Of a stretch of 64,000 nt of DNA, positions 1,869 to 60,566 are shown in pieces. Within the stretch, counting starts at the first letter, position 1, and every line of letters begins with the position of its first letter. The position numbers were made by a program, and so were the translations under genes. The notes beneath the pieces are model-generated. The model did no database searches, was not told where the DNA came from, and saw nothing but the letters and a program-made list of their open reading frames with translations. The DNA comes from Candidatus Latescibacterota bacterium (GTDB taxonomy: Bacteria; Latescibacterota; CBDEFO01): NCBI GenBank assembly GCA_965248755.1, contig OZ252149.1:3744001-3808000 (forward strand), read 5' to 3'.

Positions 1869-2990
1869 CTACCGCATCAGTATCAGCTTCCTGGTCTGCA
1901 CGAATCCATCTGTTTCCATGCGATAGAGATAGACACCGCTGGCGAGGTTTTCGCCGTTGCTATCTTTAGCGTTCCACACTAAAGAGTGGCTCCCTGCATC
2001 CATCTCTCCGTCCACCAACCTCGCTACCTTCTGCCCCATCATATTGAAGACAGATATGGCAACGTGGCTTCTAACAGGCAGATCGTAGTGGATAACCGTC
2101 TCAGGGTTGAACGGATTGGGATAGTTCTGTGAGAGGGCATAAGTTTCGGGTATGACATCCAGCGACAGCTCAGTCTGCTCGGTTGCCGCAGGGATTAAGC
2201 CCTCGTTGAGCTGGATGTCCTTAATCCTTAACAGAGTAGTCTCCAATCCATCACTCACACCGGGTATAGTCTCAAACTTGATGTAGGCTATGTCTCCGCT
2301 GCCTTCTACTCCGTCTGCGGAGGCAAATGCTATCTTGACCTCGTCCCCCTCAATATTGCTCTGGAACATAAACTGGGACATCATATCTGAAGGAGATACG
2401 CTCACTGCCTTCAGCCTTGATGCGTCGTAGCTTATAGACATATATGCTCCGAGCACACCTGACATATCGTCTATGGAAACAGGGACCTTTATGCCCTTTT
2501 CAGATGCTTGTACAGCATCAGATATCGCCACCGTGCGAGGTGAGACGGGCGCGGCCTTCGCAACACCAGGTTCTCCGAAGAACGGAAGTCCGGGTATCTT
2601 CCTGACCACCTTCTGGAGGATGCGGGATGCGTCAAATGGTGACACTGTCCCATCGCGAGTCACGTCTACGATGGCAAGGAACAGGTCTGTGTCTCCACCG
2701 AAGAAGTCGCGCAATATGTTCCTGGTCTGGACCACCCACTGTAGAACTAATGCGGCGTCGAAAGCCCTGACCGCACCGTTAAGGCTGCCATCGCCTACCT
2801 GCGCTACTGTGATGCCGCCGTCGAACTTGACCACAGGTGGGTCACCCTCGTTCAGGATCGTTTGACGCCCTAGCACAAATATTTCGATACTTGAGCCCAA
2901 CAATACGCCGGGATCTACTTCGAATACCGCAAATGCCAGGATGCCCTTTGGAGTATCAACGAGCGGAGTAGGCGAGGCAAAGGCTATTAA
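1869..2990 (-). pseudogene. C-terminal part (end of cohesin, dockerin, cohesin, NYPNPFNP/FlgD-Ig sorting domain) of the giant gene starting at 14569, separated by an IS-borne insertion
   Basis: Frame is open from 2990 (LIAFASPTPLVD...). Dockerin-like GDGSLNGAVRAFDA...DVTRDGTVSPFDA and terminal YALSQNYPNPFNPET...SGVYLYRM. Joins in frame to 9032-14569. Confidence 0.85.
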
Positions 2991-4616
2991 CCCCCATTCG
3001 CCATATTAGACCCGAAAAATGGTTGTCAAAGTCGCCAGAACATGTTATATTACAATAAATAAGACTCATAAATGGCGGATAAATATTGATCATCCAGAGG
3101 GTGAAAGAATGAAAGTAGGTTTTGATGGAGGAATAAAGCTTGAATTTCATGGTGCAAAGGTGACATCAAACGGTGGACTTCTTGCGTATCGTGACCTTGA
3201 TTACGCACTGGGATTATTTGATTCGGTATCAGCGGTTTTTACCGATAAACGCACAGGCCGTAATATCCAACATGATATATCTACTCTCCTGCGTCAATCG
3301 ATATACAGCCGTCTTGCAGGATATGAAGATGTAAATGACGCCGAGCGATTATCCGTTGATCCCGTCATGCGAGCGATTACCGGAAAGAAGGACAAAGGCA
3401 GGCAAGCTGCCAGCTCCAACACGATAGGACGTTTTGAAACTGATATACTGACTCAGCATGACAATCTCAGAAACTTGTCAGATATCAATGGCAAGTGGGT
3501 TCAAAAAGCGATGAGTAAAACACAGCATCAACGAATCATTCTGGACATGGACAGTTCGGAGAGTCCGGTACATGGCCAGCAGGAAGGATCAGCTTACAAC
3601 GGTCATTTCGGATGTACCTGTTTTCATCCAGTGTTCTGCTTCAATCAGTTCGGGGATTGTGAAGGAGTCCTACTTCGCTCTGGTAATGTTCACAGTGCTG
3701 ATCGTTGGAAGGAAGTTCTGGAACCGATCGTCAAGAGATACGAGAGCAAGAAGAATAGGAAATACTTTCGAGGCGATGCTGCATTCGCAAAGCCTGAGAT
3801 TTATGATTATCTGGAGGGAAACGGCTATTTGTATGCCATTCGGCTTCCCGCAAATGAGATACTCTATGAAAAGATACGATACCTGCTGACTCGGCCAGTT
3901 GGACGACCGCCGAGGAAACCGATTGTATCGTTATATGAATTTCAATATAAAGCGGCCAGTTGGGATCAATCGAGGCGAGTGGTCGCCAAGGTTGAATGGC
4001 ACCAAGGGGAGTTATTCCCAAGAGTGGGATTTATCGTGACCAACATGAGCGCCAAGCCAGAAGGCGTGGTACACTTCTACAATGGCCGTGGCAGAGCTGA
4101 GCAGTGGATTAAGGAGGGCAAGTATGCTCTGAACTGGACCCGACTCTCATGCAAGCGTTTCGTCTCCAATCAGGTGAGGCTCTGGCTGTTTGTTCTGGCT
4201 TACAACTTGGGCAACTTCCTGCGACGTTTTGTTCTTCCGAAGAAAATCAAACACTGGTCACTACGCAGCCTCCTCGTGAAATTTATCAAAATCGGAGCGA
4301 AGATTGTCAGACACAGCGGATATATTACGTTTCAAATGGCTGAGGTTGGGATAGACAAGAGGTTATTTGCCGAAATATTATCCCGGATTGAACGATTGCG
4401 ATGTTATTCTGTTTAAACTGCCACATTTTTTTGTGAGTCGATGGAGAGGTGTCTCTAATTGGAGGATTTAAACACAAAGAAAGTGATAATTCAGAGGAAA
4501 ATACTATTTTAATTGAAAAAAGTACTTGTTGAAAAATGTAAAAGTGGTAATATTAATTCAGAAACAAGAATGTATCGAAATATAATCCCTCATGAATGTG
4601 ATATGGGGAATGTCGG
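2991..4616 (+). mobile_element. IS1380-family insertion sequence, copy 1 (1626 bp)
   Basis: Imperfect terminal inverted repeats CCCCCATTCGCCATAT and CCGACATTCCCCATAT (reverse complement). Same ends and length in all four copies. Confidence 0.92.
3019..4416 (+). CDS. IS1380-family DDE transposase
   Basis: TSNGGLL, AGYEDVND, ILDMDSS, RGDAAF and FYNGRGRAEQWIKEGK motifs typical of IS1380 (DDE_Tnp_1_4) transposases. Confidence 0.92.
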   Translation: MVVKVARTCYITINKTHKWRINIDHPEGERMKVGFDGGIKLEFHGAKVTSNGGLLAYRDLDYALGLFDSVSAVFTDKRTGRNIQHDISTLLRQSIYSRLAGYEDVNDAERLSVDPVMRAITGKKDKGRQAASSNTIGRFETDILTQHDNLRNLSDINGKWVQKAMSKTQHQRIILDMDSSESPVHGQQEGSAYNGHFGCTCFHPVFCFNQFGDCEGVLLRSGNVHSADRWKEVLEPIVKRYESKKNRKYFRGDAAFAKPEIYDYLEGNGYLYAIRLPANEILYEKIRYLLTRPVGRPPRKPIVSLYEFQYKAASWDQSRRVVAKVEWHQGELFPRVGFIVTNMSAKPEGVVHFYNGRGRAEQWIKEGKYALNWTRLSCKRFVSNQVRLWLFVLAYNLGNFLRRFVLPKKIKHWSLRSLLVKFIKIGAKIVRHSGYITFQMAEVGIDKRLFAEILSRIERLRCYSV

Positions 4617-4779
4617 TCAACATCTCACTGCTGCCTCCCCCGTACTTGAATATCACCTCATTGGGCTGATACTCCTTCTGCTGGCATACGCTCAGCACCA
4701 GCTTTGCCTCATCCACTGAGAGTTCCCCGAACATGGGGATCCTTCTTATCATGTTCAGCACTTTGAAGTCGGTTGCCAT
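4617..4779 (-). pseudogene. 5' fragment of a cyclic-nucleotide-binding-domain protein, truncated at the IS right end (passenger DNA)
   Basis: RBS GGAGG, then MATDFKVLNMIRRIPMFGELSVDEAKLVLSVCQQKEYQPNEVIFKYG, a cNMP-domain start, running directly into the IS end. Confidence 0.7.
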
Positions 4780-5169
4780 GTCTTATCCTCCTTCACGTAA
4801 CGGAAGGCTCTTCTCCCAAAACAGTAACGTGAACCCCAAAACATCAAAACTGGACAGATGGCTTAGCAAGTTTTTAGAATCATGCAAGAGCTCAAAATGA
4901 GTCTCCACGGGGGCTGTTATGTCAAATAAACCTTCTATCTTTACAGATGTACATTAGAAATAAGTTGTCTTGCACCACTCGATTTGGTAGAATAGGTATG
5001 CCCACCAACAGAAAGGTAAGACTGTCAAGTCGGGTAGTCTGTGCAACCAACGCGAAAAACTTGCTTTACTTGTCCAATTACGTGCTCAGAAAAACGGGTT
5101 CAGTTCATTCCCGCTCTTCCATTCCTATCGCCAAACTTTTTGTCTAAAATGTCCTGCACGATCATAAGT

Positions 5170-5775
5170 TTAATTTCTATCCTGTCTCACTAAAAAAAAG
5201 TAACTTATGTGGACTTTTAAGGCGGAGGCGATCTTACGTAAAGTAGAAATTGAAGCTGAACTGTCTCCCAATTCGATCTTGGATATTAGGCTTAGCGATA
5301 GCCCTGTCCTGTTTGCCAACTGCTTGATCGTTAACCCTTTTTCCTGCCTTAAAGCTCGAATCCTTTGTCCTATCTCTGATGCTAACTTTTCGTCAGGATC
5401 AATTTCCAGGCCCCTCTCAGCCAGAGCCTTTTGAATAACATCTAAAAGTTCTGGCATCCTGAATGGTTTCGTAATGTAATCAGTAACGCCCAGCTTCATC
5501 GTGGTGACAGCCGATTCCGTACTCGGGTAACCCGTCACTACGATTACAGACACATCCGAGTCGAACTTCCTTATGTCTACAAGGAGATCATCACCTGTTA
5601 TTGCGGGCATTTTTAGATCCAGAAGTACCACGTGATGCATCCCACTTTTAAGTTTGTCCATCGCCCTTTTGGGATCAGTGACACTTTCAACATCAAAACC
5701 CTCTTGAGTAAGGTAATGACTAAGCGAATCGCTAAATTCTTTGTCGTCGTCAATTATCAGTGTTTTAATCTTCAT
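5170..5775 (-). CDS. Response regulator: receiver domain plus XRE/HTH_3 DNA-binding domain
   Basis: LIIDDD, LLDLKMP, VTGY and KPF receiver motifs; C-terminal IGQRIRALRQEKGLTIKQLANRTGLSLSLISKIELG. Confidence 0.9.
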   Translation of the reverse strand: MKIKTLIIDDDKEFSDSLSHYLTQEGFDVESVTDPKRAMDKLKSGMHHVVLLDLKMPAITGDDLLVDIRKFDSDVSVIVVTGYPSTESAVTTMKLGVTDYITKPFRMPELLDVIQKALAERGLEIDPDEKLASEIGQRIRALRQEKGLTIKQLANRTGLSLSLISKIELGDSSASISTLRKIASALKVHISYFFLVRQDRN

Positions 5776-5792
5776 CTTAGCTTTAGTTCAAT

Positions 5793-5903
5793 TCATGCTG
5801 AAGTTTTTGTCAGCACATCTTCAAGTTCTGACAGTTTAAAGGTTTTGTACAGTATCGCGTAAAAGCCTATTCCCCTTGCCGCTGTCCTCTTAGTAAAAAG
5901 CAA
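5793..5903 (-). pseudogene. Possible remnant of a receiver-domain C-terminus
   Basis: Translates as ...ARGIGFYAILYKTFKLSELEDVL..., resembling the KPF region; no start visible. Confidence 0.35.
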
Positions 5904-6307
5904 TTAGGATCAAGCACTTGTCGATAAAAAGTTTCAACTATTGTTTTATGATATGACGTGAACCCCAAACTGGACAGGGTCTTAATATACGACGATGCCG
6001 ACTCTTTGTCAACCTTTTTCAAATCATAACATATATATTCTACAATTATTTAGTATGAATAAACTATTCTATAAATACTATATAAAAAGAAAGCCCGCCA
6101 TTTCTGACGGACTGTGTGTTTGAGTATCGCCGACTCTTTTACATTTAGAGACTCTTTACCTACAGGATCATTCACTCGTTCCCATTATCACCTCGCGTAA
6201 TGTCTTGCTCAGTTCTTCGACCTTATATGGTTTGGCAACAAAACTGCTGAAACCATATTGCCTGAAATTGGCTAATACCGGATCGTTAGAATAACCGCTC
6301 GATACAA

Positions 6308-7933
6308 CCCCCATTCGCCATATTAGACCCGAAAAATGGTTGTCAAAGTCGCCAGAACATGTTATATTACAATAAATAAGACTCATAAATGGCGGATAAA
6401 TATTGATCATCCAGAGGGTGAAAGAATGAAAGTAGGTTTTGATGGAGGAATAAAGCTTGAATTTCATGGTGCAAAGGTGACATCAAACGGTGGACTTCTT
6501 GCGTATCGTGACCTTGATTACGCACTGGGATTATTTGATTCGGTATCAGCGGTTTTTACCGATAAACGCACAGGCCGTAATATCCAACATGATATATCTA
6601 CTCTCCTGCGTCAATCGATATACAGCCGTCTTGCAGGATATGAAGATGTAAATGACGCCGAGCGATTATCCGTTGATCCCGTCATGCGAGCGATTACCGG
6701 AAAGAAGGACAAAGGCAGGCAAGCTGCCAGCTCCAACACGATAGGACGTTTTGAAACTGATATACTGACTCAGCATGACAATCTCAGAAACTTGTCAGAT
6801 ATCAATGGCAAGTGGGTTCAAAAAGCGATGAGTAAAACACAGCATCAACGAATCATTCTGGACATGGACAGTTCGGAGAGTCCGGTACATGGCCAGCAGG
6901 AAGGATCAGCTTACAACGGTCATTTCGGATGTACCTGTTTTCATCCAGTGTTCTGCTTCAATCAGTTCGGGGATTGTGAAGGAGTCCTACTTCGCTCTGG
7001 TAATGTTCACAGTGCTGATCGTTGGAAGGAAGTTCTGGAACCGATCGTCAAGAGATACGAGAGCAAGAAGAATAGGAAATACTTTCGAGGCGATGCTGCA
7101 TTCGCAAAGCCTGAGATTTATGATTATCTGGAGGGAAACGGCTATTTGTATGCCATTCGGCTTCCCGCAAATGAGATACTCTATGAAAAGATACGATACC
7201 TGCTGACTCGGCCAGTTGGACGACCGCCGAGGAAACCGATTGTATCGTTATATGAATTTCAATATAAAGCGGCCAGTTGGGATCAATCGAGGCGAGTGGT
7301 CGCCAAGGTTGAATGGCACCAAGGGGAGTTATTCCCAAGAGTGGGATTTATCGTGACCAACATGAGCGCCAAGCCAGAAGGCGTGGTACACTTCTACAAT
7401 GGCCGTGGCAGAGCTGAGCAGTGGATTAAGGAGGGCAAGTATGCTCTGAACTGGACCCGACTCTCATGCAAGCGTTTCGTCTCCAATCAGGTGAGGCTCT
7501 GGCTGTTTGTTCTGGCTTACAACTTGGGCAACTTCCTGCGACGTTTTGTTCTTCCGAAGAAAATCAAACACTGGTCACTACGCAGCCTCCTCGTGAAATT
7601 TATCAAAATCGGAGCGAAGATTGTCAGACACAGCGGATATATTACGTTTCAAATGGCTGAGGTTGGGATAGACAAGAGGTTATTTGCCGAAATATTATCC
7701 CGGATTGAACGATTGCGATGTTATTCTGTTTAAACTGCCACATTTTTTTGTGAGTCGATGGAGAGGTGTCTCTAATTGGAGGATTTAAACACAAAGAAAG
7801 TGATAATTCAGAGGAAAATACTATTTTAATTGAAAAAAGTACTTGTTGAAAAATGTAAAAGTGGTAATATTAATTCAGAAACAAGAATGTATCGAAATAT
7901 AATCCCTCATGAATGTGATATGGGGAATGTCGG
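6308..7933 (+). mobile_element. IS1380-family insertion sequence, copy 2; simple insertion with 4-bp target duplication ACAA
   Basis: ACAA at 6304-6307 and 7934-7937; same ends and transposase as copy 1. Confidence 0.92.
6336..7733 (+). CDS. IS1380-family transposase
   Basis: Protein identical to 3019..4416. Confidence 0.92.
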   Translation: MVVKVARTCYITINKTHKWRINIDHPEGERMKVGFDGGIKLEFHGAKVTSNGGLLAYRDLDYALGLFDSVSAVFTDKRTGRNIQHDISTLLRQSIYSRLAGYEDVNDAERLSVDPVMRAITGKKDKGRQAASSNTIGRFETDILTQHDNLRNLSDINGKWVQKAMSKTQHQRIILDMDSSESPVHGQQEGSAYNGHFGCTCFHPVFCFNQFGDCEGVLLRSGNVHSADRWKEVLEPIVKRYESKKNRKYFRGDAAFAKPEIYDYLEGNGYLYAIRLPANEILYEKIRYLLTRPVGRPPRKPIVSLYEFQYKAASWDQSRRVVAKVEWHQGELFPRVGFIVTNMSAKPEGVVHFYNGRGRAEQWIKEGKYALNWTRLSCKRFVSNQVRLWLFVLAYNLGNFLRRFVLPKKIKHWSLRSLLVKFIKIGAKIVRHSGYITFQMAEVGIDKRLFAEILSRIERLRCYSV

Positions 7934-9026
7934 ACAATGGCCTTAACCTCAGGGTCTATTTCAAGCAGCTTCCTGATGGCTTCTTTTCCCCCGATACCGC
8001 CAGGCACAGTTAAATCCATAATAACTGCATCAAAGGGCTGTCCTGATTTCTGGGCCTGCTTGTAAAGCTTGATAGCTGCGGCGCCATCTTCGGCAAACTG
8101 TGCCTCATATCCAAAATGAGTCAGTATCTGGCTGAGGGACTCTCTGATGTCTTCCTCATCGTCCATGATCAAAATCTTGCCCTTGCCGGCAAGGGGTTTT
8201 TCCTCTACATCTTCCTTTATCTGGATTTCTTTTGAGGTAGCGGGGAGATAGATATGGAAGGTGGTTCTAACTCCCAACTCGGATTCTACACTTATGTACC
8301 CATCGTGGTTCGTAACTATGGAATAGGAAGTCGTAAGACCAAGGCCGCTGCCCTCCTGTTTAGTCGTGAAAAAGGGATCGAATATCTTATCAAGATGCTC
8401 CTGGGCTATACCGATCCCCTGATCTGCAACGCATGTTTTTATGTATTTTCCCTCCTGCAAAGGGAGAGCGCCTTTTGCTCCTACGGTAACATTTTCAGCA
8501 CGCATCTTAATTGTCCCGCCGTGGGGCATTGCCTGGTCAGCGTTGATAATCAAATTGTTGATGACCTGACTTATCTGTCCTTCATCAACTTCAACCGCCA
8601 AAAGACCGTCAGGGAAGGAGAATTCGCACTTAACATTGGAGCCTCTCAAGGCAAAGCCGACTGAATCTTTTATTAATTCTGAGATAGAGATCGTCTCCTT
8701 AATCGGCGCTCCGCCGCTGGAAAAGGTGAGCAATTGCTGGGTCAAGTCCTTTGCCTTTATGGACACTTTCTCTATCGTAGTCAATACCTCAGAGATTTCA
8801 TCTTCCGATTTTGCATACTTTGCAAGGGAGACATTGACCAAAATCGTAGCTAGAACATTATTAAAGTCGTGTGCAATTCCCGCTGCTACGTGTCCTAAAA
8901 CATTGAGCCTTTCCATCCGGACTATCTGCTCTTGCGCCTCCTGCAATTTTCGATAGGAGTGATCTAAATCCAGGCTCATCCGGCTCAGTTCCTGATTGGC
9001 TCTCTGCACAAGAGTAAAAATGTCCT

Positions 9027-12000
9027 ATTAAGGCTGTTCCAGGTTCAGGAGAGTTAAAATCGAAGCTACCGGGGAAGTCTCGTCCCGGACCCGGAGATGC
9101 CTTCAAAAATTTCACACTGGCTTGATCGAAACGGAGCGTTATCTCGCCTGCTATCACGCCTTTGTCGTCCAGACCAACAGCAAAGATAGGGATTATGGCC
9201 TGTCCTCCGGGACCTGCGATCTCCTCGCCTGCTCCCAAGGTCACAAAGTTAGACGGGTCGGCTGTCGCAAACGAGGCGGCGCTGTCTGCAAGGCTCTTCG
9301 CGCCGAGGTTGTCCTCCGCTTCGATGTTCACAAGGAACTGTCGGGGACGATCGGCGGGAGTAGGCCATGGAGCGCTGCCCCAGAGTATATCACCCGGATC
9401 TCCGTCGAAATGCGCCCCATCGTTGAAGAGGGGGACAAGCGCAGGAACAAAGGTCGCATCGGTCGGATCCCACACCATCGCCTCGACCGCGGCCACTCCG
9501 TCTGGATCGGTTACCTCAGCGAATATCCGCACAGGTTCGCCGACTGGAACGACACTTCGGGAGACTGCTACGTTGGCTATTTCAGGCCCAGCAGGAGCCA
9601 GAGCCGGAACGCCCCTGCCCATCAGAGGAACTCGCAAGGAGGGAGTATCCGGGTCGTTGCTGTTGATTATCAGTGTGTCGTAGGATACCGCCACAGACCC
9701 AGGCTCAAACCTGACCTCTATCTTGGTCATCCCAGCAGGACCAATCCTAGCCGGTCCTATCAAGGACGCACCAAACGGCAGAGCAGTCGGAGCCAGAGAA
9801 ATACCACTTATTTCCAGCGTATCGTTACCTGTATTGTTCACCATCAGGGAGTCAATCTTGAAAGCGCCCGCTTCGACAGTACCGAAGTCATGAGAAGGCG
9901 GAGTCACAACTATATTGGGCCCGGCAGGAGGAGTCACCTGAGGCCCCACCTTACGTATCCGGTCATTGGCAAAATCCGCAATATAGATAATCCCCGATCC
10001 ATCCACAAATACGCCACTAGGTAATTTCAAAGTCGCATCGGTAGCTAGACCGTCATCACCGGAAAATCCTCCGCCGCTGAAACCAGTAGCCCCACTTCCT
10101 GCCACGGTGGAGATGATGCCAGACGTATTATCCACCTTACGTATCCGATGATTGACCTGATCCGCAATATAGATATTGCCCAATCCATCCACGGATACGT
10201 CCTGAGGAGAATCCAAACTCGCAAGGGTAGCTAAACCATCATCACCGGAAAATGCTTGGGTGCCATTTCCTGCCACGGTGGAGATGATGCCCGATGTATC
10301 AACCTTACGTATCCGCTGGTTGAAAGAATCCGCAATATAGATAACCCCCGATGTATCCACGAATACGCCCATAGGCTGATTCAAACTCGCATCGGTAGCT
10401 TGACCACCATCGCCTATACCACTGGCAGGGAATCCACCTCCTGCCACTGTGGTGATGATGCCAGACGTATCCACCTTACGTATCCGATTATTGTTCATAT
10501 CCGCAATATAGATAATCCCTGATCCATCCACGAATACGCCCCAAGGGTGATTCAAACTCGCAACGGTAGCTTGACCGTCATCACCGGAAAATCCCCCGCC
10601 GCTGAAACCAATAGCCCCACTTCCCGCCACGGTGGTGAGGATGCCCGATTGATCAACCTTACGTATCCGGTGATTGATACGATCCGCAATATAGATAACC
10701 CCCAATCCATCCACGAATACGTCATGGGGCTGATTCAAACTCGCATCGGTAGCTTGACCACCATCACCGGAAAACCTTCCGAGCCCAGTAAGTGGATCCG
10801 TGAACCCATCTCCTGCCACGGTGGTGATGACGCCCGATTGATTCACCTTACGTATCCGCTGATTGTTCCTATCCGCGATATAGATATTACCTGATACATC
10901 CGTGAATACACCAACAGGCAAACCCAATCTCGCCTCGGTAGCTGGACCACCGTCACCTATATCAGGGAAAGTGAATCCACCTCCTGCCACGGTGGTAATG
11001 ATGCCCGGTGTGGGTGGAGGCGCAACATTAACGCCTTCTCCGGTCAGAGGGACTTCAAACACTGGGGTGTCAGGGTCGTTGCTGCTGATCCTCACAGTAT
11101 CGCTGACAGCTCCCACAGAAGCGGGTTGAAACTGAACAATAATTTTGGATAATCCGCCCGGAGGGATACTGTCAGGGTATGTGCCAAGCAAAGACACATT
11201 GAACGGCGGCCCTCCGTAGGTCGCCTGGGAGATAACAAGCGTATCCGTCCCGGTATTGCTCACCATCAAAGTATCTGATTTGGAAGCGCCCACGTCCACA
11301 GTACCGAAGTTCACAGAATCCGGATTCACAGCTATATTGGGCGTATCCTGTTGTGCAGCAATACCAACACCTGCTAAATTTACAAACAGAGTGTCGTCAG
11401 CGGCGTCTGGATCGTTGCTGGGTATGAGCAAAGTGGCATTCTTGGGCCCCGGAGCGCCAGGACTGAAAATCGCAACCACACTGATGTTACCACCTGGGAC
11501 AATAGCCGTACCGGAAAGATTGCCAAGAATAGGGTTAAAGCTGAAAGCAAGCGGATTGGGGCCGGTCTTGGAGACAGTTCCCAAGCGCAAAGTGTCATTG
11601 CCGGTATTTGTGATCGTCAGTGAATCTTGTCTCAATCCCCCGACTACGACAGTATCAAAACCGATAGAAACGGGATCAACAACTATATTGGCCGCAGGAG
11701 GAGGTGCAGCAGGCCCCACCTTACGTATCCGGTTATTGCCCCGATCCGCAATATAGATACTCCCCGATCCATCCACGAATACGCCAGAAGGAGTTCTCAT
11801 AGTCGCCTCGGTAGCTGGACCATCATCACCGGAAAAACTTCCGTTGTTAAGACCAGGAGTCCCACTTCCTGCCACGGTGAAGATGATGCCCGACGTATCC
11901 ACCATACGTATCCGATTACTGTACTGTTCCGCAATATAGATATTGCCCAATCCATCCCCAGATACGCCAATAGGATGATCCAATCTCGCCTCTGTAGCTA

Positions 12001-18628: not shown

Positions 18629-19427
18629 TTGGAAGAAAAGATGCATATGATGCATATACTGAGGACATTGACATTTGTCGCTTTGATGTGCGGGATTGCA
18701 TCTCTATCCTGGGGCCAATCCGTGACGCTCAGGGTCGAAGACGCAGTCATAGACGAAGGAACTGCATCTGTCTCTGTGCCGATCTTCTTCGACACTAGCG
18801 ACCTGAGACCTATACGGAGCATGCAGATACAGCTTCTGTTCGATACGGATGATCTTCTGTTTAAGAGGGCAAATAAGGTGTCGAGCCGTCTGAACAGATT
18901 CGTGGTGAGGGCGGACGCGGAGATCCTGAAAGCCCAGACGGGAACCTTTGGATTGGATATAGATATTTTTGCCATCGGGGGACGTACGATCCCTGCCGGG
19001 GCGGATATTATCCTTACTCTGGACTTTGATATAATTGAAGGGGCTACATTACCCTCACAACTAACCTTTCTACCGTTCGATGGTGTGTGTAGCACTAGGC
19101 ACAAAAGGGGTTATCGATGCCGACAGCGGATTTCCAGATGACCAGCATCCGCTGATTCTTGAGAATGGCAACATCGTAATAGTAGTAAAAAAGCTTATAG
19201 GTGACATCAGCAGAAACGTCAAGGTTAGTTCTTTCGACGCTTCTTTAGCACTAATGTATTCGGTCGGAATCAGGAACATAATACGCGAGTTCTTTGACGG
19301 GAATATAGGACTATTCCTTGATATCTCCGATGTGACTCGCAATGGGGAAGTGACATCTATGGATGCCGTTCGAATTTTGCAATTTGTAGTTGGGAATATC
19401 CCAGGACTCCCGTTCCAAGAAAACTGA
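18629..19427 (+). pseudogene. Small secreted cohesin-dockerin protein, frameshifted near 19085
   Basis: Signal peptide and cohesin-like domain near-identical to that of the next gene; GTGT expansion near 19085; dockerin GDISRNVKVSSFDA...DVTRNGEVTSMDA. Confidence 0.75.
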
Positions 19428-32751: not shown

Positions 32752-32759
32752 TCGGGAAC

Positions 32760-34022: not shown

Positions 34023-34032
34023 GAGAGGGAAC

Positions 34033-37232: not shown

Positions 37233-37274
37233 TACACGATCTTTCTTTTTTGAACTGCTTGTTACAGAGTCAAC

Positions 37275-39569: not shown

Positions 39570-40385
39570 ATGAAAAGATCGGTCAGAATGTTCGGTTGCG
39601 CTTTGATGATTCTTGCGGGATTTGTCTATTCTGCAGAGGCAGCAGACGTAAGTTTGAGCCTTCCTGATGTATCTGTGGAGCCCGGAGGAGTGGGAACCGC
39701 GGCAATTAAGATGGAAAATCTGGAAAGTGAGGTCTTGGGGGTTCAGATAGTTTTAAAATACGATCCTAATGTGGTAAAGACGATAAAGATTCAGAAGGCA
39801 GGTCGCACCGATCACATGGACGTTTTGGAAAGCAACGTAGTGGAGCCGGGGATTTTGAAGCTGCTGGTGTTTGATCTGGAGGGGGAGTCTATCTCAAAGG
39901 GCGAGGGAGATATAGTAAATGTGGAGTTTACCGTCTCACCGGATGCGTCGCTCGGAGGGGTGAGTCCGTTGGAAATTATCTTTACAGAGGATAACACCAA
40001 TACCACCCTGGCTGATCTGGATAGGTTGGCGATTAAGTCCCTACAGATTAAGGACGGTGCAATTACGATAGGTCAGTCGGAGGAAGCGGATGGGGAGGGC
40101 ATACCGGGCAGCTCTTCGCTTTTACAAAACTTTCCGAATCCCTGGAACCCTTCTACCGTCATCAAGTATCACATAGCCCAGGATGGGCACGTGAATTTAA
40201 GTATATATAACATTGCAGGACAGCTTGTTCGGAATCTGGTGGATGATACTAAAAAGGCTGGAAAGTACGATGTGCAATGGGACGGGAAGGACAATAGTGG
40301 CAGAGTTGTGACAAGCGGAGTCTATTTCTATAAGATCGCTGCTGAAAATTTTAAGTCCACAAGGAAGATGATACTTTTGAGATAA
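39570..40385 (+). CDS. Small secreted cohesin plus sorting-domain protein
   Basis: RBS AGGAGG; signal peptide; GVQIVLKYDP cohesin-like motif; LLQNFPNPWNPST...SGVYFYKI. Confidence 0.87.
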   Translation: MKRSVRMFGCALMILAGFVYSAEAADVSLSLPDVSVEPGGVGTAAIKMENLESEVLGVQIVLKYDPNVVKTIKIQKAGRTDHMDVLESNVVEPGILKLLVFDLEGESISKGEGDIVNVEFTVSPDASLGGVSPLEIIFTEDNTNTTLADLDRLAIKSLQIKDGAITIGQSEEADGEGIPGSSSLLQNFPNPWNPSTVIKYHIAQDGHVNLSIYNIAGQLVRNLVDDTKKAGKYDVQWDGKDNSGRVVTSGVYFYKIAAENFKSTRKMILLR

Positions 40386-40666
40386 CTCACGTGTGGTTCT
40401 ATCCGAAGACAGAGCGCTGGAGAGTGGGGGGAGTTTGATTGAGCGTTATCACTTCGGGGGTCGATAAACCTGAAAGGATTCAATTTACCAATTGAGTCTG
40501 GCTCTTGCCTTTGTAATTCTGCTCTGTGGATCGCTTCAGGATAGTCTACGGGGGTACGTTACGGAAGTTTCTGGGATTGGAAACAGGGCAGCATGCTGAT
40601 TTTGTTAAGAGAGGTAAGAAGCCAGATTTGTTATTTACCTTCGTTGTTCAGGGAGGTTACACCCTT

Positions 40667-52837: not shown

Positions 52838-52964
52838 CCTCTTTGTTATCTGACCCCAATCCCCTATAGACTCAATTGGGGATCGGGGACCTGATGTAGA
52901 TTTGTTAGCTATGACAGAGGCTAAAGGCTATATGAAAACTCATAACAAAGAGGGAAGATTTCTG

Positions 52965-55900
52965 ATGAAAAATAAACTGTTATTCCTGATGGGACTAGCT
53001 CTTGTGTATCTGCTTGCCCCCGGGATTACCCAGGCAAACGGTGGGGTGATTATAGATATCGGGGACGGTTTGGCCGCTGCGGGAGAGTCCAATGACGTGT
53101 TTATCTCTATTACTAACGATACAACTACTATTAATACGACTATAGCGGCGTTTCAGTTTGATGTGGTATTTGACAGCACCCAGCTTGAGCCTGTAACCGA
53201 TAGAGGTCTTTCTATATCGGTGGGAGATCCTGTACCTTTCTCAACGATCGATCTGAGGATGGAGACTCAATCGCCTGCCATGAAGACGGAGTTGATTGCG
53301 GCTAATACTATAAGGGTTGTGTTTGTTGATCTTACTACAAGTACTTTAGCAGGAGCAAGGAAAGTTTTGCCGGCAGGTAGAGGACCTATTATGTCTATAA
53401 GGTTCAAAGCAAAAGAAGGTGCGTCAGCAGGAAACAATAGTTTGTTCATAGAAACTAACGAGTTGTCGGATCTGAGAGGTGAGTCGATTCCTTCAGCTAC
53501 AGAACCAGGCACTTTCTCTGTGGTGACCCTGGGACTTGGCATTGGTCAGGGTCAGGCGGCTGTGGGACAGACGGGTCCTGCTCCCGTAATCTTGATAAAT
53601 GTGGATCCTATCGGTGGTGTTCAGTTCGATGTGGGTTTCGACAATAGTCTGCTGGAGTTCGTGGGGGTCGAACAGACAACCAGGAGTACAGGACTGATAC
53701 AGGTTGCGGGGGATACTCTACCGGGTCAGCCGGATGTAGTGCGCGTCGTTGCAGTGAGAGGGCGTCCAGGTAGAGCTATAGCCTCCGATACCAAGGGTGT
53801 AAACCCCGTATTTAATCTTCTGTTCAGGGTAAAGAAAGTGGCCGATCCTGACTCGATCTTGAGCTTTTCTTCACCTTTGACGTTAGCCAACTTGATAATT
53901 TCGGACGAACAGGGTGAAGAGACATTTTTGGATGCGGCTCCGGCCAGCGGGCTCTTTACTGTGGTGCGCGTAAAGGAGTCCCCGGTAGCGAATTTCACTG
54001 CGACTGTCGTAACGGGTACCAGAACAGTGAGGCTCAGGAACCGTTCAACGGGGCTTGCCGAATCTTTCGAGTGGGACCTAGGGGACGGCGGGAGCGCTAC
54101 AGTCGAGAACCTTAATCACACGTACGCACTTCCCGGGGCTTACCAGGTGACTCTGAGGGTGACAGGACCTACGCCCCCTGGGCTATTCGACACAGAGACC
54201 AAGCTTGTAGTTGTGGCGGCTCCTCGTCCGTCTGTCTCAAGTGTAATTCCAAGCAGAGTAGACAACGATGTGGAGAATGTCGTGACTGTCACCGGAGCTG
54301 AGTTCTTCGTGCAGGACGGGACACTTCCCGTCGTGGGGATAGACGGCTTCTTCCCGCCAGTCCAGTTTGTAAGTTCGAATCAGCTAAGGGTTACTATTCG
54401 GGCAGGAATTCCCATAGGTGTCTTTGATGTGCAGGTGACAAACCCCGATGAGCAGAGTGCCCTCGCGCCGCTGCCGAAGCTGACAATTGATCGTCCCGCC
54501 CCGGGAATAGACGCTGTCGATCCGAGCACTGTAACTGCGGGAATAGATGATATCGTTACTATTACGGGTTCTAATTTCTTCAACGATCCTCTGCCAATTT
54601 CGGTATCTATAGATGGGATTGCGCTGGCCGTTACGTTTGCTAACTCTACTACTTTGAGAGCGACGGTTGCAGGGACAGTGGCTCAGGGGACTTACGATGT
54701 GACGGTGACGAACTCCGATCCTGACGGCTCGCGTCCACTGGGCCCTCGGAGCGCGACTCTTGCTGGGGCTTTGACGGTGACCACACTTCCTCCAGACCCT
54801 CAGTCTGTGACTCCTGATACCGTCGTTGCAAGGGTGGATGCGCGCCTGACGATCAGCGGCCAGAACTTCAAGGAGGGGGCGACTGCGACTCTGGGAGGTG
54901 TGGATCTGGATGTCATCTTTATAAACAGAAGAGAATTGAGGGGAACGCTCTTAGGGACAGAATCTGTGGCGCTTGAAGGACCACAAGATCTGGTGGTGAC
55001 GAACCCTGATGATCTGAGCGGAACTTTAGAGGCAGCACTAGTGGTGCTTCAGCTGGCGGCGCCGAGTGTGACTGCTATCGATCCTAGTACAGTGGTGAAC
55101 GACAGGGACACGACATTTAGTATTACGGGTGCGAACTTCTTTGATCGCCCCACACCTCCCCAGGTAAGCGTGGACGGCGTGGCTTTGAGGGACGTGGAGT
55201 TCATAAGCAGTACAGAGCTGAGGGCCCTCGGCGGTCTTGGCCTTGACGTTGGTACAAGGAACGTGACTGTGACGAACCCTGACGGTCAAAGCGCCACAGG
55301 CGCCGGGATTTTAGATGTCATAGTGGGGCAGGTGATTCTGGCAGCCGTAGAACCGGCTATTGTCGTAAACGATTCAGCAAGGACTATAACGCTTTTGGGA
55401 GCTAACTTCGTGGCTCCTATTACAGTGGTGACAATAGACGGGACACCGCTGTCCGATGTTACTCCAGTAGATTTGAGGAGAGTGACGGCGACTGTCCCTG
55501 CGGGTCAGGCTCCGGATACCTACGATGTTACCATAAATGCGCTTCCGGGCAGTGCGACCCTTAGGAACGCTTTGACCGTAATTCTCCCGGCTCCGAGAGT
55601 AACGGTACTTGATCCCGACACCGTGTTTACGGAGACCGATGTCCTTTTAACGATTACGGGAGCTAATTTTGTAGATGGTGCATCCGCGCGGATAGACGAC
55701 GGAAGCGGAAACGTATTTCCTCTAACTCCTGTGGAGTTCGTAAGCGGCACGGAACTCCGGGCAACGATAAGCGGAATTTTCCCTGATCTCAGGTTTTATG
55801 ATGTTGTAGTTATAAATCCCGACGGTCAGAGAGGGGTGCTGGAGGACGGATTATGGATTACGGACTTTCCTGCTCCCCAGGTGGTGGGCATAAGCCCCGA

Positions 55901-58900
55901 TACGGTTGGAAATAATGTGGCGACAGATGTGGTCATCGAAGGAGCAAATTTCCGGGAGGGGGCTTTGGCGCGAATAGGCAGGGCTGATGCGGCGACTTTT
56001 GGATTGATAGGCATAGATGTCATAGACTCACGTTCAATTTCAGCTACTGTACCTGGAGGTTTAGATCCAGGGATCTACGATGTGATAGTGGTAAATCGCG
56101 ATCCGCTGGACAGGAAGGCAAGGCGCGGGATCGGAAGAGCAGAGGGAATCCTGGTGGTTCAGGACAGGGTCCGCCCATCGTTTAGACCCGCTCCGAGAAT
56201 TGTCGGCGCATCGGATAGCACTCTGACAGTCTTCTGGGGCGCAACCGAGCTGCATACGGGATTCGTGAGGTTTGAAAATACGGCTACCGGTGTTCTGGAC
56301 TCAGTGGCGACGCCGCCAGAACTCAAGATAGGTCATAGGCTTATTGTGGGCGGATTGGCGGCTAATATTAGATATAGAATAAGCGTGAGGATCTTCGACC
56401 TGGCGGGAAACCAGACCATAAGCCGAGACGTATTTGAGACGACTAAGAAGATTATACTGCCTTCGGTCAGGTTCGTTGAGGGTCCAACGGTGGTGAATAT
56501 TACTGACGTGACAGCAAACATAGTAGTAGGATTCAACAGGCTGGCGGAGGTGGAAGTACAGTTTTACAGCGTGGCGTCGCCTGAAGATACTAGAATAGTG
56601 GTGAGTGATCTGTCCAGAAGACACAACATCACCCTTTTCGACTTGACCTCAGACACTCTGATCGAATTGATAGTTACAGCTACCGATTTAGATGATAACG
56701 TTGTAATAAGCGGCATAATTCAAATTAGGACAGACCTGGGCCCGGACGTGACTTCACCGATCTTTACTTTGGGTCCGTTCGTGCGTGGGGTGACGACGAA
56801 CTCGGCCGGGATAGGGACGGTTACAAGCGAGAGTACGACTATCAGGATAGACTTTGGTACGTCCGCCGATTTCGGTCAAGTGCTCATTGGGGATGAGACG
56901 ACCGATAAGCATGCGAATAGATTGAGGGATCTTGATTTGACAACCACGTACTTCTTCCAGGTGACTGTGGCAGACCTTGCGGGCAACGAGACGGTTTCGG
57001 ACGTGGATTCTTTTGCGACTCTTTCACCTGTGCAGATCATACCTCTGGAGATAACTGAGCCTCCCTTCGCCTCCGGTATCGACACCAGTGAGGTTACGAT
57101 TGCCTATACAACTAACAAGATATCAGACACGAGGATATTGTATGGGACTGCACCGGATTCTTTGATTCAGTTGTTTGTGGACTCGGAAAACGTCTTAAAG
57201 CACAGCGGCGACTTGACAGGGCTGACTACGGCAACGGATTACTTTTACACGGTTACTTCAACTGCGCTGGACGGCGACGAGATAACCTCTGATATACTGA
57301 GGTTTAGGACGAGATCAGTAACTCTACCTCTCTTGATTACTGGGGGTCCTAATCTGGACTTTGCTGATACGAGCTCGGCTCAGATATCCTGGCTTACGAA
57401 TAAGCCTGGCAACTCGATAGTGGAATTCGGATTGACAGAAGGCCCACCTTTTGATGATAGAAAGATTGTATCGGAAAAAGTTGTGGATCACGTGGTGAGT
57501 CTTACCGATCTGCAGTCAGGAACTCAGTATTTCTACAGGGTGATCTCCGAGGGAAGCGACGTAACAAGCGTAGTCAAAATCTTTAACACGACGGATGCCG
57601 TAGATTTAACTCCGCCTTCGCTCACAAGAGGTCCGGTTCCTGCACGTGTCAGAGATAGGGCAGGCGTGGATGTTAATACGGTGACGATAAAATGGAGCAC
57701 GGACGATCCTTCTAATTTTGTTCTCCGATTCAAGGGTACTGACGATCCCAGAGCAGAGACCGACGTTGTAAGGAACAGGGATGTCAGGACAGTCTCGGAT
57801 CCAAACTTTACGAAGGATCATACGGCGATCTTGACGAATTTAACTTCCAATACAGTTTACTTTTATCTGATAGAGGCTCGAAATCCCACGGCACCGGATG
57901 CAGCTCTATTCAAGCCGAGAGTGGGAAAAACCTTTAAGTCCAAGACTCTCAGGGTGCGGGACGCGACTCCGCCTACGTTTGTGGATGGACGTCCGAGCGC
58001 GGGCTACACGAGCGCTACGAGGGCCGTATGGGTATGGAGGACCAACGAACCTTCTACGAGCGAGGTGTTTCTAAGGGAGGAGGGGTCTGTATCCTTCGAC
58101 TTTTTAGGGGATACCCGCTTTGTGACAGATCACTCCGTTCCGGTAACGGGTCTGACAGCGGGGACGACGTACGAAGTTATAATAATCTCGGCGGACAGGG
58201 CCGGGAACTTCGTGAGCTTTCCCGTACCAGGTATAAGGCCGAAATTTGCAAGGGAGAACGCTGCAAATGGAATCCTGGCAAAGGCAGTCTTCCAGCCTCC
58301 CGGAGGCAGGGGATCGTTTACGACATCTTTTATCGAAGATACAGACCCTCCCATCATTCTGACCGATCCATCGCTGCTGTCAACCACGCAGAACAGCGTC
58401 ACAATGAGCTGGCCTACGAATGAGCTTTCAGACAGTGTGTTAGAGTTCAGTCTGACTGATACTACTGTAGAGGGCAAGGTTTTTGGAGCTTTACAGGAAG
58501 AGCCGACGTTCGAGTTCCGGAAGGAGTTTGGCCAGGACGTCGTAGATCACATTGTGTTGGTGACAGATCTGCCTGAAGGGCAGACCTTCGACTTTCAAGT
58601 CTCTTCGACTGACCCGAACGACAATGGTCCGTCGTTCAGCAATCCTTCAATCTTTTCGACAGTGATAGAGCCAGATGTGACTCCTCCCAAGGTACTGGAC
58701 GTGAGTGTAGAAGGTAAAACGACGAATCAGGCGACCCTTGCGTGGAGGACAGATGAGCTTGCCAACAGTGTGGTGGAGTTCTTCACTGCGGGAGGGGATA
58801 CGCTCTTGAGAGAAGACGATAGAAATGTGATCGATCACAGGGTGACCTTGACGGGTTTGGAGCTAGGGACGGAATATACCACTTCGGTTTCTTCTACTGA

Positions 58901-60566
58901 CATAAGTGGCAACGGTCCTTCTTCATTTGCTACGACCTTTACGACGGCTACTGAGATTGACATTATACCCCCAGCAATAAGAGATGTTTCGGGAAGGGAA
59001 GGGGCGGAAGCTCAGTTTGTGACCTCTCTTTCCGATTCGACGGCGAGTTTAGAGTGGATTACGGATGAACTCTCCAACAGCTTTGTGGATTTCGACACCA
59101 CGCGGTCGACTCTGGAGTCAGGAGTGGGATTCAGTGTTGCAGGAAGCGCGGAGAACATCATAAGGCACAGAGTCACTTTGACGGGCTTGAGGAGCGGAAT
59201 TACATACTCCTACAAGGTTGGATCTGAAGATGTAACCGATCCCCCGAATGTGGCCCAGAGCGAAATACTCTCATTTGTGCCAGAGGCGGATGTGACTCCT
59301 CCCCAGAGGCCAGAAGAGGTAAAGTCCATAGGTGGAGACAGAGAGGTCTTTCTGAGTTGGAAGCAGAACGTAGATCTTGACTTTGCGTCTTATCAGGTCC
59401 TAAGGTCTGTGGGTGACGAAAGCTTTGCAAGCATAGCGACAGGTGTTACGGACACGACATTCCGTGATGTAGGGCTTGAGAACGGCTCGGAGTACGCATA
59501 TAAGGTGGTGGCGTTCGACAGGGCGGCCAACTCGGCAGAATCCGACATCGCTCAGGTGGATCCTATCCCGGCTGTTGGAAACGTTGCGACGGCTCCCGGG
59601 ATCATAGGTATAGGACCAGATCCTGATTTAGGACGTCCTATTGTCGGCGCAGAAGAGAATGTCAAGACTCAGACTCCCAACCTTTTGATAAGTCAGGCCT
59701 CTCCGGGACTGCGTGACACTCTATCTGTGTTGACTTACACGTTCACAGTCTATTCAGATTCAGCGCTGACCGACGTCGCAAGGTCTATTTCGGGGATTAC
59801 ACCGGCGGGACCCGATGATCCGATTCCAGGGAGCGGTTTCAGTCTGTTCTGGCATCTCACTCCTCCTTTGGACAAGGATATAGATCTTGCTACTGGCGAG
59901 TTCATTGCGACGACTTTCTGGTGGAGAGCAAGGGCTAACGATAGTATATTTAACGGCCAGTGGTCCGCAGCCGAGAAGTTTGTAGTCGATGCTGTGGCTG
60001 TGGTGGAGCTATCCAGCTTCACGGCCCTGGAAGACAGGGGAAGAGTAAGAGTAAACTGGGTCACGGCAAGCGAGAGGGAGAACGCCGGGTTCAACATCTA
60101 CAGGAGTATAACAAAAGACGGGGTCTACCATAGGTTGAACGATGAGCTGCTTGTGGGAGACAGTCCCTACATGTTCGTGGATGAGGATGTACAGATAGGA
60201 AGGACCTACTACTACAAGCTTGAGGCTCTTGATATAGTAGGGGAAGGAACCTTATTCGGCCCTGTTGCGACGACTCTGAGAGGGCCTATGAGCTATTCTC
60301 TTTCCCCAAACTATCCAAATCCTTTCAACCCTGAGACTACCATAAATTACGAGGTACCCAAGACAGGAAGATTGACGCTTAAGATATATAACGTCCTGGG
60401 TCAGGAGGTAAAGACGCTGGTGGATGAGAAGTTGGAGCCAGGTTATTATAGGGCGCTATGGGATGGAAAAGACAGCACAGGCAGACAGATGGCAAGCGGG
60501 GTCTATTTCTACCGTATAAAATCGGAGGGTTTTGCCAAGTCGCTGAAGATGATGCTTTTGAAGTAG
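52965..60566 (+). CDS. Giant secreted surface protein: two cohesins, PKD, IPT/TIG repeats, FN3-like repeats, sorting domain (ORF track start 52902)
   Basis: AAFQFDVVFD; WDLGDG...HTY..PGAY; ITGANF...VTNPDG repeats; W.T.E.S.S...H.V.LTGL repeats; VELSSF, WVTASE.ENAGFNIYRS; LSPNYPNPFNP. Confidence 0.88.
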   Translation: MKNKLLFLMGLALVYLLAPGITQANGGVIIDIGDGLAAAGESNDVFISITNDTTTINTTIAAFQFDVVFDSTQLEPVTDRGLSISVGDPVPFSTIDLRMETQSPAMKTELIAANTIRVVFVDLTTSTLAGARKVLPAGRGPIMSIRFKAKEGASAGNNSLFIETNELSDLRGESIPSATEPGTFSVVTLGLGIGQGQAAVGQTGPAPVILINVDPIGGVQFDVGFDNSLLEFVGVEQTTRSTGLIQVAGDTLPGQPDVVRVVAVRGRPGRAIASDTKGVNPVFNLLFRVKKVADPDSILSFSSPLTLANLIISDEQGEETFLDAAPASGLFTVVRVKESPVANFTATVVTGTRTVRLRNRSTGLAESFEWDLGDGGSATVENLNHTYALPGAYQVTLRVTGPTPPGLFDTETKLVVVAAPRPSVSSVIPSRVDNDVENVVTVTGAEFFVQDGTLPVVGIDGFFPPVQFVSSNQLRVTIRAGIPIGVFDVQVTNPDEQSALAPLPKLTIDRPAPGIDAVDPSTVTAGIDDIVTITGSNFFNDPLPISVSIDGIALAVTFANSTTLRATVAGTVAQGTYDVTVTNSDPDGSRPLGPRSATLAGALTVTTLPPDPQSVTPDTVVARVDARLTISGQNFKEGATATLGGVDLDVIFINRRELRGTLLGTESVALEGPQDLVVTNPDDLSGTLEAALVVLQLAAPSVTAIDPSTVVNDRDTTFSITGANFFDRPTPPQVSVDGVALRDVEFISSTELRALGGLGLDVGTRNVTVTNPDGQSATGAGILDVIVGQVILAAVEPAIVVNDSARTITLLGANFVAPITVVTIDGTPLSDVTPVDLRRVTATVPAGQAPDTYDVTINALPGSATLRNALTVILPAPRVTVLDPDTVFTETDVLLTITGANFVDGASARIDDGSGNVFPLTPVEFVSGTELRATISGIFPDLRFYDVVVINPDGQRGVLEDGLWITDFPAPQVVGISPDTVGNNVATDVVIEGANFREGALARIGRADAATFGLIGIDVIDSRSISATVPGGLDPGIYDVIVVNRDPLDRKARRGIGRAEGILVVQDRVRPSFRPAPRIVGASDSTLTVFWGATELHTGFVRFENTATGVLDSVATPPELKIGHRLIVGGLAANIRYRISVRIFDLAGNQTISRDVFETTKKIILPSVRFVEGPTVVNITDVTANIVVGFNRLAEVEVQFYSVASPEDTRIVVSDLSRRHNITLFDLTSDTLIELIVTATDLDDNVVISGIIQIRTDLGPDVTSPIFTLGPFVRGVTTNSAGIGTVTSESTTIRIDFGTSADFGQVLIGDETTDKHANRLRDLDLTTTYFFQVTVADLAGNETVSDVDSFATLSPVQIIPLEITEPPFASGIDTSEVTIAYTTNKISDTRILYGTAPDSLIQLFVDSENVLKHSGDLTGLTTATDYFYTVTSTALDGDEITSDILRFRTRSVTLPLLITGGPNLDFADTSSAQISWLTNKPGNSIVEFGLTEGPPFDDRKIVSEKVVDHVVSLTDLQSGTQYFYRVISEGSDVTSVVKIFNTTDAVDLTPPSLTRGPVPARVRDRAGVDVNTVTIKWSTDDPSNFVLRFKGTDDPRAETDVVRNRDVRTVSDPNFTKDHTAILTNLTSNTVYFYLIEARNPTAPDAALFKPRVGKTFKSKTLRVRDATPPTFVDGRPSAGYTSATRAVWVWRTNEPSTSEVFLREEGSVSFDFLGDTRFVTDHSVPVTGLTAGTTYEVIIISADRAGNFVSFPVPGIRPKFARENAANGILAKAVFQPPGGRGSFTTSFIEDTDPPIILTDPSLLSTTQNSVTMSWPTNELSDSVLEFSLTDTTVEGKVFGALQEEPTFEFRKEFGQDVVDHIVLVTDLPEGQTFDFQVSSTDPNDNGPSFSNPSIFSTVIEPDVTPPKVLDVSVEGKTTNQATLAWRTDELANSVVEFFTAGGDTLLREDDRNVIDHRVTLTGLELGTEYTTSVSSTDISGNGPSSFATTFTTATEIDIIPPAIRDVSGREGAEAQFVTSLSDSTASLEWITDELSNSFVDFDTTRSTLESGVGFSVAGSAENIIRHRVTLTGLRSGITYSYKVGSEDVTDPPNVAQSEILSFVPEADVTPPQRPEEVKSIGGDREVFLSWKQNVDLDFASYQVLRSVGDESFASIATGVTDTTFRDVGLENGSEYAYKVVAFDRAANSAESDIAQVDPIPAVGNVATAPGIIGIGPDPDLGRPIVGAEENVKTQTPNLLISQASPGLRDTLSVLTYTFTVYSDSALTDVARSISGITPAGPDDPIPGSGFSLFWHLTPPLDKDIDLATGEFIATTFWWRARANDSIFNGQWSAAEKFVVDAVAVVELSSFTALEDRGRVRVNWVTASERENAGFNIYRSITKDGVYHRLNDELLVGDSPYMFVDEDVQIGRTYYYKLEALDIVGEGTLFGPVATTLRGPMSYSLSPNYPNPFNPETTINYEVPKTGRLTLKIYNVLGQEVKTLVDEKLEPGYYRALWDGKDSTGRQMASGVYFYRIKSEGFAKSLKMMLLK

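Follow-up and report, generated by a model that had tools for sequence, protein, structure and literature searches.

The amylase Amy4 of Ruminococcus bromii is reported to bind its own dockerin and to multimerise (PMC4611034, PMC12663171), and for Ca. Stygibacter (Cloacimonadota) a putative cellulosome-like complex has been described as a prediction (Williams et al., 2021; PMC8542988). According to the descriptions in PMC8542988 and PMC6461901, the combination of cohesins and dockerins with the C-terminal sorting domain (CTD) for type IX secretion systems (T9SS) was proposed before for Cloacimonadota, and adaptor proteins for Planctomycetes. In Porphyromonas gingivalis, a Cys/His dyad of PorU is described to cut off the CTD and to attach anionic lipopolysaccharide (A-LPS) (PMC10202324), and substrates of a porU C690A mutant are described as retaining their CTD and remaining with PorV (PMC5562754). 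Here we describe a window of 64 kb (G000:C1:3744001-3808000) from the 4.54-Mb, single-contig genome of a Candidatus Latescibacterota bacterium, which encodes secreted proteins built from cohesins, dockerins, and CTDs. Our preferred reading, to which we give a little better than even chances, is that they belong to a genome-wide secreted set for two-tier, non-covalent surface display via two separate cohesin-dockerin pairs, with the CTD proteins as surface-held sockets.

Two Dockerin Classes and Their Probable Partner Cohesins

Module profiles were built from the genome's own cohesin and dockerin matches and applied to the window as well as genome-wide; CTDs were called at the TIGR04183 cut-off of 23 bits, and relatives were compared in a 31-genome set, with G001 as the sister genome of the same genus. 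The window is the densest cluster of a genome-wide module set, with cohesins or dockerins in 11 open reading frames (ORFs) versus 64 ORFs in the whole genome (mean 0.9 per 64 kb), and it represents a local accumulation rather than a dedicated locus. Genome-wide, 42 of 48 matches to the Pfam family Cohesin (PF00963) and 17 of 30 to the dockerin family PF00404 lie over the cut-off.

The sequences show the modules, their order, a division of the dockerins into two classes, and a substitution in PorU. Dockerins of the first class, DocA, carry the motif GDVSxNGxVxAFDA and are followed by a cohesin and a CTD in 23 of 26 ORFs; ten intact ORFs of the genome read cohesin-DocA-cohesin-CTD. Seven more ORFs, 48524 (named, like other window ORFs, by first position) among them, have one or more cohesins and a CTD and no dockerin by the genome profiles. 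Dockerins of the second class, DocB (GDFDGDNEVGLSDF, two symmetric loops), stand at the C-terminus without a CTD in 20 of 26 ORFs, the remainder being internal or N-terminal (five) or part of a dockerin-cohesin-CTD tail (one). Both Ca-loop motifs are intact in all 19 aligned DocB sequences, Asp12 of DocA is retained in both repeats in 94 of 94 sequences, and the conserved cohesin motifs AG and N are found in 96% and 97%, respectively, of 94 sequences. One of three isolated DocB sequences exceeds the cut-off of 29 bits of NCBIfam dockerin_GC (NF041540), and DocB lacks Cys; a Gly-Cys ending of that family is something we assume from its name.

The identity of these modules, as proposed in the initial annotation of the window, is supported by profile matches, by superposition of a paralogue model on solved cohesins, and by PDB profile searches. 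The AlphaFold model of an intact paralogous cohesin-DocA-cohesin-CTD tail, 67% identical to the window fragment 1869 (predicted local distance difference test, pLDDT, 87; predicted TM-score, pTM, 0.71), shows two β-sandwiches separated by a helical module and, at the C-terminus, a further sandwich, and its top Foldseek matches are solved cohesins, as single domains (root mean square deviation 2.2-2.6 Å, target TM about 0.8). In PDB profile searches, DocA matches type I dockerins and DocB finds the C-terminal dockerin of CipA first (E 3e-6); ESM Atlas groups DocB with Dockerin_1 clusters (score 0.94). Cohesins fused to DocB find ScaB and anchoring cohesins first; for the other cohesins, the leading matches are Archaeoglobus fulgidus 2xdh and type I cohesins, and ScaB ranks fifth. 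The type II label of ScaB and the anchoring cohesins is taken in part from one entry title and is otherwise assumed, as are some other type labels. By these comparisons DocA appears type I-like, DocB appears type II-like, and the DocB-fused cohesins seem to resemble type II cohesins. Two separate pairs are expected mainly because separate PDB searches sort dockerins and cohesins alike, a concordance that is not proof.

The proteins of this set carry mainly NHL, FG-GAP, PD40, IPT, PKD, and ASH domains. Catalytic Pfam families occur in four of 24 DocA/cohesin proteins (S8, M23, M6, and GSDH) and in five of 24 DocB-type proteins (M6, heparinase-like, α/β hydrolase, and two alkaline phosphatases, of which one has at its end a module like that of window ORF 38741, whose dockerin identity is unsupported). 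In the window itself, the module-bearing proteins contain no catalytic CAZyme or protease family by Pfam, Pur_ac_phosph_N in 52902 being a non-catalytic N-terminal module. The initial description of the assembly as enzyme-free is therefore correct for the window and does not extend to the genome, where hydrolases carry the same modules. No glycoside hydrolase was found in 48 module-bearing proteins scanned across the genome or in those of the window, in which respect the set departs from a cellulosome and agrees with the non-cellulosomal role first proposed. It does possess multi-cohesin scaffoldins as cellulosomes do, namely 40526 with seven cohesins and genome ORF 4523412 with five in tandem.

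Two further groups of proteins were observed. Lipoprotein-like proteins with a single terminal cohesin (genome 2205690-2206472; loci L084 and L088) are candidate CTD-independent anchors. In 19 genome ORFs (e.g., 3376097-3376750), one of them encoding a cohesin protein, the C-terminus bears the short motif [ST]WGx[IVL]K, in most cases preceded by TAVE-like residues; the motif is possibly a minimal sorting tag.

Export Machinery

A genome search for sprA, porV, and porU homologues, suggested in the initial annotation, recovers all three. SprA and seven PorV-family proteins lie over the cut-off and PorU scores 712 bits (cut-off 420); given SprA, PorV-family barrels, and PorU, the organism is probably a diderm with T9SS-type export, in accordance with the export route first proposed from the CTDs. 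The barrel adjacent to porU stays under the strict PorV equivalog cut-off (174 vs. 250). Neighbours of porU encode PorV, a CTD protein that is M6-like, and a TolB-like/peptidase protein; what follows porV is a gene with a match to an M6-like family, below the cut-off, and not to PorZ. GldK has no match over the cut-off in the genome search, and GldM was found in 0 of 31 genomes, but the intended positive controls likewise gave 0. Within the 31-genome set, SprA is over the cut-off in 28 genomes and PorU in 23.

The sole PorU (genome 1023179-1027054; L146:11134-15006) is the only C25 protein of the genome. Aligned with PorU of P. gingivalis, it keeps the His and has Ser (codon AGC) at the position of the catalytic Cys, so that the His/Cys dyad is absent. 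This replacement occurs in two of 20 PorU-like sequences, those of G000 (the genome studied here) and G001, and Cys is present in the other 18. Judged by its alignment, the sortase looks inactive in this genome. The genomes G007, G012, G017, G022, and G027 have SprA, 36-58 DocB matches, few CTD-type candidates, and a long PorU-like protein below the cut-off, in which the Cys is kept in the three examined.

Intact and Interrupted Genes of the Window

The 11 module ORFs together with the FG-GAP ORF 27863 represent nine genes, five intact and four broken, so that the initial count of at least ten module-bearing proteins stands for ORFs and not for genes. Pfam Cohesin exceeds its cut-off in five window proteins; Dockerin_1 has no match in the Pfam scan of whole window proteins, and a six-frame search of the window gave two matches under the cut-off (E 0.006 and 0.017). 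All six proteins that were thought to share a C-terminal sorting domain do exceed the TIGR04183 cut-off (27.8-44.6 bits; ORFs 1869, 31861, 39570, 40526, 48524, and 52902).

Features lie on the forward strand unless stated otherwise. Two intact genes encode a signal peptide, a cohesin, and a CTD; that at 31861-32751 is a candidate single-socket anchor, its cohesin being recognised by the genome-built profile only and not by Pfam, and that at 39570-40385 is a candidate anchor recognised by Pfam and TIGR04183. The scaffoldin-like protein of 2625 residues at 40526-48403 comprises four N-terminal cohesins, ASH, two internal cohesins, a divergent DocA (47375-47569; dockerin profile E 8.9e-7), a further cohesin, and a CTD, that is, seven cohesins plus one dockerin. 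The protein of 1437 residues at 48524-52837 consists of a cohesin, an invasin-type Ig domain, ASH, a divergent dockerin (about 51896-52108), a cohesin, and a CTD; its dockerin is too divergent for the genome-built profiles and is supported by hhalign at 94.8% over dockerin plus cohesin. The third giant (2554 residues, 52902-60566) has two N-terminal cohesins, PKD, IPT/TIG, FN3-like repeats, and a CTD, with no dockerin profile match and no Ca-loop motif. Three giants had been said to end in the same dockerin-cohesin-CTD triad, which applies intact to 40526 and 48524 only; 52902 has no dockerin, and the third triad (1869-2903) belongs to one half of a split gene.

The broken genes correspond to the ORF pairs 8861+1869, 18629+19080, 19390+23073, and 27863+28929. 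The first is an NHL giant on the reverse strand, whose 5' half (9032-14569; ORF 8861-14569) encodes a signal peptide, NHL propellers, ASH Ig domains, and the start of a cohesin, and whose 3' half (1869-2990) encodes the end of that cohesin, DocA (2580-2807), a cohesin (2142-2546), and the CTD (1872-2144). Inserted in the cohesin is a 6-kb IS1380 transposition unit (about 2991-9031), composed of an insertion sequence (IS), a response regulator with helix-turn-helix domain, a second IS, and a histidine kinase fragment, and flanked by a 5-bp target duplication; its two further copies in the genome both lack the inner IS. The two ORFs are regarded as halves of one gene because an intact paralogue spans both (query residues 1-174 align to 9553-9026 and residues 173-546 to 2990-1872) and the intervening DNA is a repeated IS1380 unit. 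Without the unit, about 2220 residues can be read in one open frame, and in G001 the halves are adjacent, with no IS between them.

At 18629-19427, a signal peptide and cohesin (18713-19090) and DocA (19188-19415) stand in two frames of a frameshifted gene without CTD; the site of the frameshift (18629/19080) is spanned without gaps by contigs from runs X2 and X3. The gene at 19390-23215, for a protein with a cohesin, four ASH domains, DocB, and no CTD, is broken inside DocB by an IS1380 unit (21344-23072), after removal of which a 698-residue frame is open. The FG-GAP repeat protein at 27863-29651 ends in DocB (29460-29648; dockerin_GC 32.3 bits, cut-off 29), has no CTD, and is frameshifted near 28983. 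Contigs of the best-matching sample, which may be the assembly's own source, agree with the window at both frameshifts; at 28983, a contig of run X4, from a different study, is one base shorter.

Further traces of IS1380 surround these genes. The CHRD/ASH protein at 1-1608 (reverse strand) is the 5' part of a broken gene; an IS1380 copy separates it from its cohesin-DocA-cohesin-CTD tail, which is encoded to the left of the window in the ORF at genome 3740349-3741341. This gene and the NHL gene (9026-9031) are neighbouring paralogues, and both carry IS1380 in the same cohesin strand, right after an SPEPG motif. An IS-truncated remnant at 38901-39514 resembles the C-terminus of the alkaline phosphatase protein at genome 961543; the dockerin-like end of ORF 38741 found no support, with no family match and an hhalign probability of 1.7%. 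IS1380 has 48 full-length matches in the genome, and its copies in the window lie at 2991-4616, 6308-7933, 21344-22969, and 37275-38900. Many genome copies have identical right flanks, which suggests one-ended transposition carrying adjacent DNA, a behaviour that we take to resemble that of ISEcp1. Beside an IS end, a 720-bp block (36557-37274) with tRNA-Leu(CAA) is 93.6% identical to genome 499122-499840 and is possibly a carried duplicate. A repeat of about 255 bp resembling a miniature inverted-repeat transposable element lies at 35500-35765; dozens of its copies occur across G000 and G001.

Occurrence in Related Genomes

A Pfam cohesin match is found in all 31 genomes, with 43 and 31 matches in this genus and 1-5 elsewhere. 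These numbers are undercounts, as the DocA-cohesin profile matches 13 times in G004, equally often in G029, and at least once in 12 of the 31 genomes. DocB occurs in 17 of 31 genomes; five of these, all from a single other genus (g7), have 36-58 DocB matches and 2-3 Pfam cohesin matches each. In g7 loci (20 regions picked from the match lists), DocB is mostly terminal, and a few DocB-cohesin-CTD proteins are related to genome ORF 3370021, which carries a class II cohesin. In a 50%-identity library, a cohesin follows the dockerin in 126 of the best 150 matches, 106 of them also with a CTD, the matches having been selected by that profile.

The sister genome G001 keeps the order tsaD-NHL-tail and contains a 52902 orthologue, 87% identical, beside a UDP-glucose dehydrogenase gene, with the relatives of the three giants at separate places. 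Glycosylation genes at 23916-35512 (Wzy_C-TPR, three of GT4 type, and Wzi, by Pfam) were initially taken to be co-located with the module genes; their membership in the system is not supported, nor is the co-location as a conserved trait, since the giants' relatives lie apart in G001 and the glycosyltransferase/Wzi block (29700-35480) has no DNA match there (0 of 40 scored, 255 candidates). From window position 61550 to genome 3825168 extends a polysaccharide-type cluster, recognised by Pfam for UDP-glucose dehydrogenase and otherwise by eye. At genome 3731484-3733370, 12 kb left of the window, two ORFs resemble, by eye, a reverse transcriptase and a retron-type partner.

Discussion

In the display system that we favour, CTD proteins would cross the outer membrane through SprA/PorV, as their homology suggests. 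Type I-like DocA proteins, with their own cohesin before the CTD, would bind to one another as well as to proteins with several cohesins, 40526 for example, so that branched clusters form. The CTD-less, type II-like DocB proteins would attach to those few cohesins on CTD proteins that are type II-like. The CTDs would probably be kept, because the only PorU has Ser in place of the catalytic Cys, and would be held non-covalently, for example on PorV-family barrels, not linked to A-LPS. Both pairs are probably calcium-dependent, this dependence being, like export, binding, and anchoring, something we infer. What is presented would for the most part be binding domains (NHL, FG-GAP, PD40, Ig), hydrolases forming the minority. 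Self-linking into a network is conceivable, given the many proteins with both modules and the combination of seven cohesins with a dockerin in 40526. The initial annotation overlooked the second, CTD-less dockerin class, the broken genes, and the Cys-to-Ser change in PorU. A more far-reaching version, in which a T9SS lineage dropped covalent sortase anchoring for a two-class cohesin-dockerin code and DocB proteins piggy-back on cohesin-CTD carriers, the dockerin being a second, indirect T9SS sorting tag, we consider doubtful.

Several observations weigh against the display that we favour. The class split is not clean, since the 'type I-like' cohesin profile also picks up the type II ScaB dyad (2.9e-11), and the best PDB E-value of DocB is only 3e-6. 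Few class II cohesins face at least 20 DocB proteins, whose signal peptides were judged by eye only and whose exit from the periplasm the model leaves unexplained. The dockerins of 40526 and 48524 have one regular Ca loop each, the other being irregular, and four of nine module genes in the window are broken. The Ser of PorU could be a working nucleophile, the change in G000 and G001 is a single lineage event, and G004 combines its 13 DocA-cohesin matches with an intact PorU Cys, so that a dead sortase is no prerequisite for the tail.

The continuous surface lattice or adhesive mesh of the initial annotation, a calcium-dependent head-to-tail polymer tied to the local glycosylation genes, could draw on the ten intact cohesin-DocA-cohesin-CTD ORFs, on the modules of 40526, which would permit branching, on the mostly non-catalytic cargo, and on the aggregation of Amy4 via its own pair as described in PMC12663171. 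We nevertheless judge it unlikely, as its subunits would differ widely in size and content, unlike those of a regular lattice, many of them are broken, DocB proteins would be chain ends, and in G001 the giants are scattered and the glycosyltransferase/Wzi block was not found. A different role for the tail has a somewhat better claim and is still rather unlikely, namely that the CTD-adjacent cohesin is a cis cap or extended sorting signal. It would shield its own dockerin while the protein is exported, and cleavage at the basic linker would then remove it, so that the chain ends in a free dockerin. The Lys of the dockerin-cohesin linker is present in every one of 18 aligned tails, and [AP]K precedes 37 of 133 post-dockerin cohesins versus five of 179 other cohesins; in the wider set, however, Lys is found in only 54 of 94 sequences and Arg in 11, among matches selected with a profile containing the Lys, and [AP]K also precedes 17 of 114 CTDs. 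Also in favour of this role, the linker has a lower pLDDT in the tail model, and the acidic, T[AD]V..E-like stretch that, by eye, precedes many cohesin-free CTDs is not seen in dockerin-cohesin-CTD tails; against it, the sortase looks inactive here.

Least probable among these readings, and improbable in our view, is one that dispenses with pairing altogether, the cohesin folds being stalk or glycan-binding spacers and the dockerins binding Ca2+ or another receptor, with DocB possibly an independent sorting or anchoring tag. The large excess of DocB over cohesins in genus g7 speaks for it, as do the divergence of the window dockerins and the one window DocB over the cut-off of the NCBIfam family 'GC-type dockerin domain-anchored protein'. 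Against it stand the fixed dockerin-cohesin adjacency seen in the library matches, class signals that agree on both partners, and the conservation of the cohesin motifs. Should binding be confirmed for the two-tier display that we prefer, an assembly of the cellulosome type, with its type I/type II hierarchy, would be at work on the outer membranes of uncultured diderms, where it would serve adhesins and a small number of hydrolases. Cohesin-dockerin pairs that are new and orthogonal could then be gained, together with a natural example of T9SS display in which the sortase nucleophile is substituted, and one could test directly whether a folded protein without a CTD can pass through SprA on a partner. 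All components are small domains expressible in E. coli.

A literature search found no publication that describes a repeated dockerin-cohesin-CTD tail or two classes combined with a T9SS, though such cases may be contained in supplementary material, for instance in the domain tables of PMC8542988 and PMC9012536. Like the set described here, the complex of Ca. Stygibacter belongs, as far as its description goes, to a non-cellulolytic bacterium, with a scaffoldin-like protein of tandem cohesins plus CTD and secreted dockerin proteins; there, dockerins are on enzymes and one scaffoldin is described, whereas here a fixed dockerin-cohesin-CTD tail is found on 23 ORFs, a second dockerin class lacks the CTD, and cargo is mostly non-catalytic. 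With the clostridial two-tier cellulosomes (CipA; ScaA-ScaB-ScaC of A. cellulolyticus) the set shares the cohesin fold, duplicated Ca-loop dockerins, apparent type I/II-like classes, and adaptor-like proteins that combine both modules. In contrast to them, no glycoside hydrolase was found in the dockerin proteins scanned, the T9SS CTD replaces SLH or sortase anchors, and it is the cargo and not the primary scaffoldin that carries the type II-like dockerin. Amy4 of the amylosome likewise has cohesin and dockerin on one chain; its self-binding has been demonstrated, and it is described as a single monoderm amylase with no repeated tail and no CTD. The 'planctosome' of Nemodlikiaceae (PMC6461901) and proteins of ANME archaea (PMC9012536) are similarly non-cellulosomal, genome-predicted cohesin-dockerin sets with adaptor- or scaffoldin-like members, and differ in the anchors described for them, lamin tail and S-layer, with no T9SS. 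Finally, SprA (Sov), the PorV family, PorU beside PorV, and type A CTDs are shared with the T9SS of P. gingivalis as presented in PMC10202324 and PMC5562754, from which the system of this genome is set apart by the Ser in place of the PorU Cys and by an M6-like family protein, not PorZ, encoded after porV.

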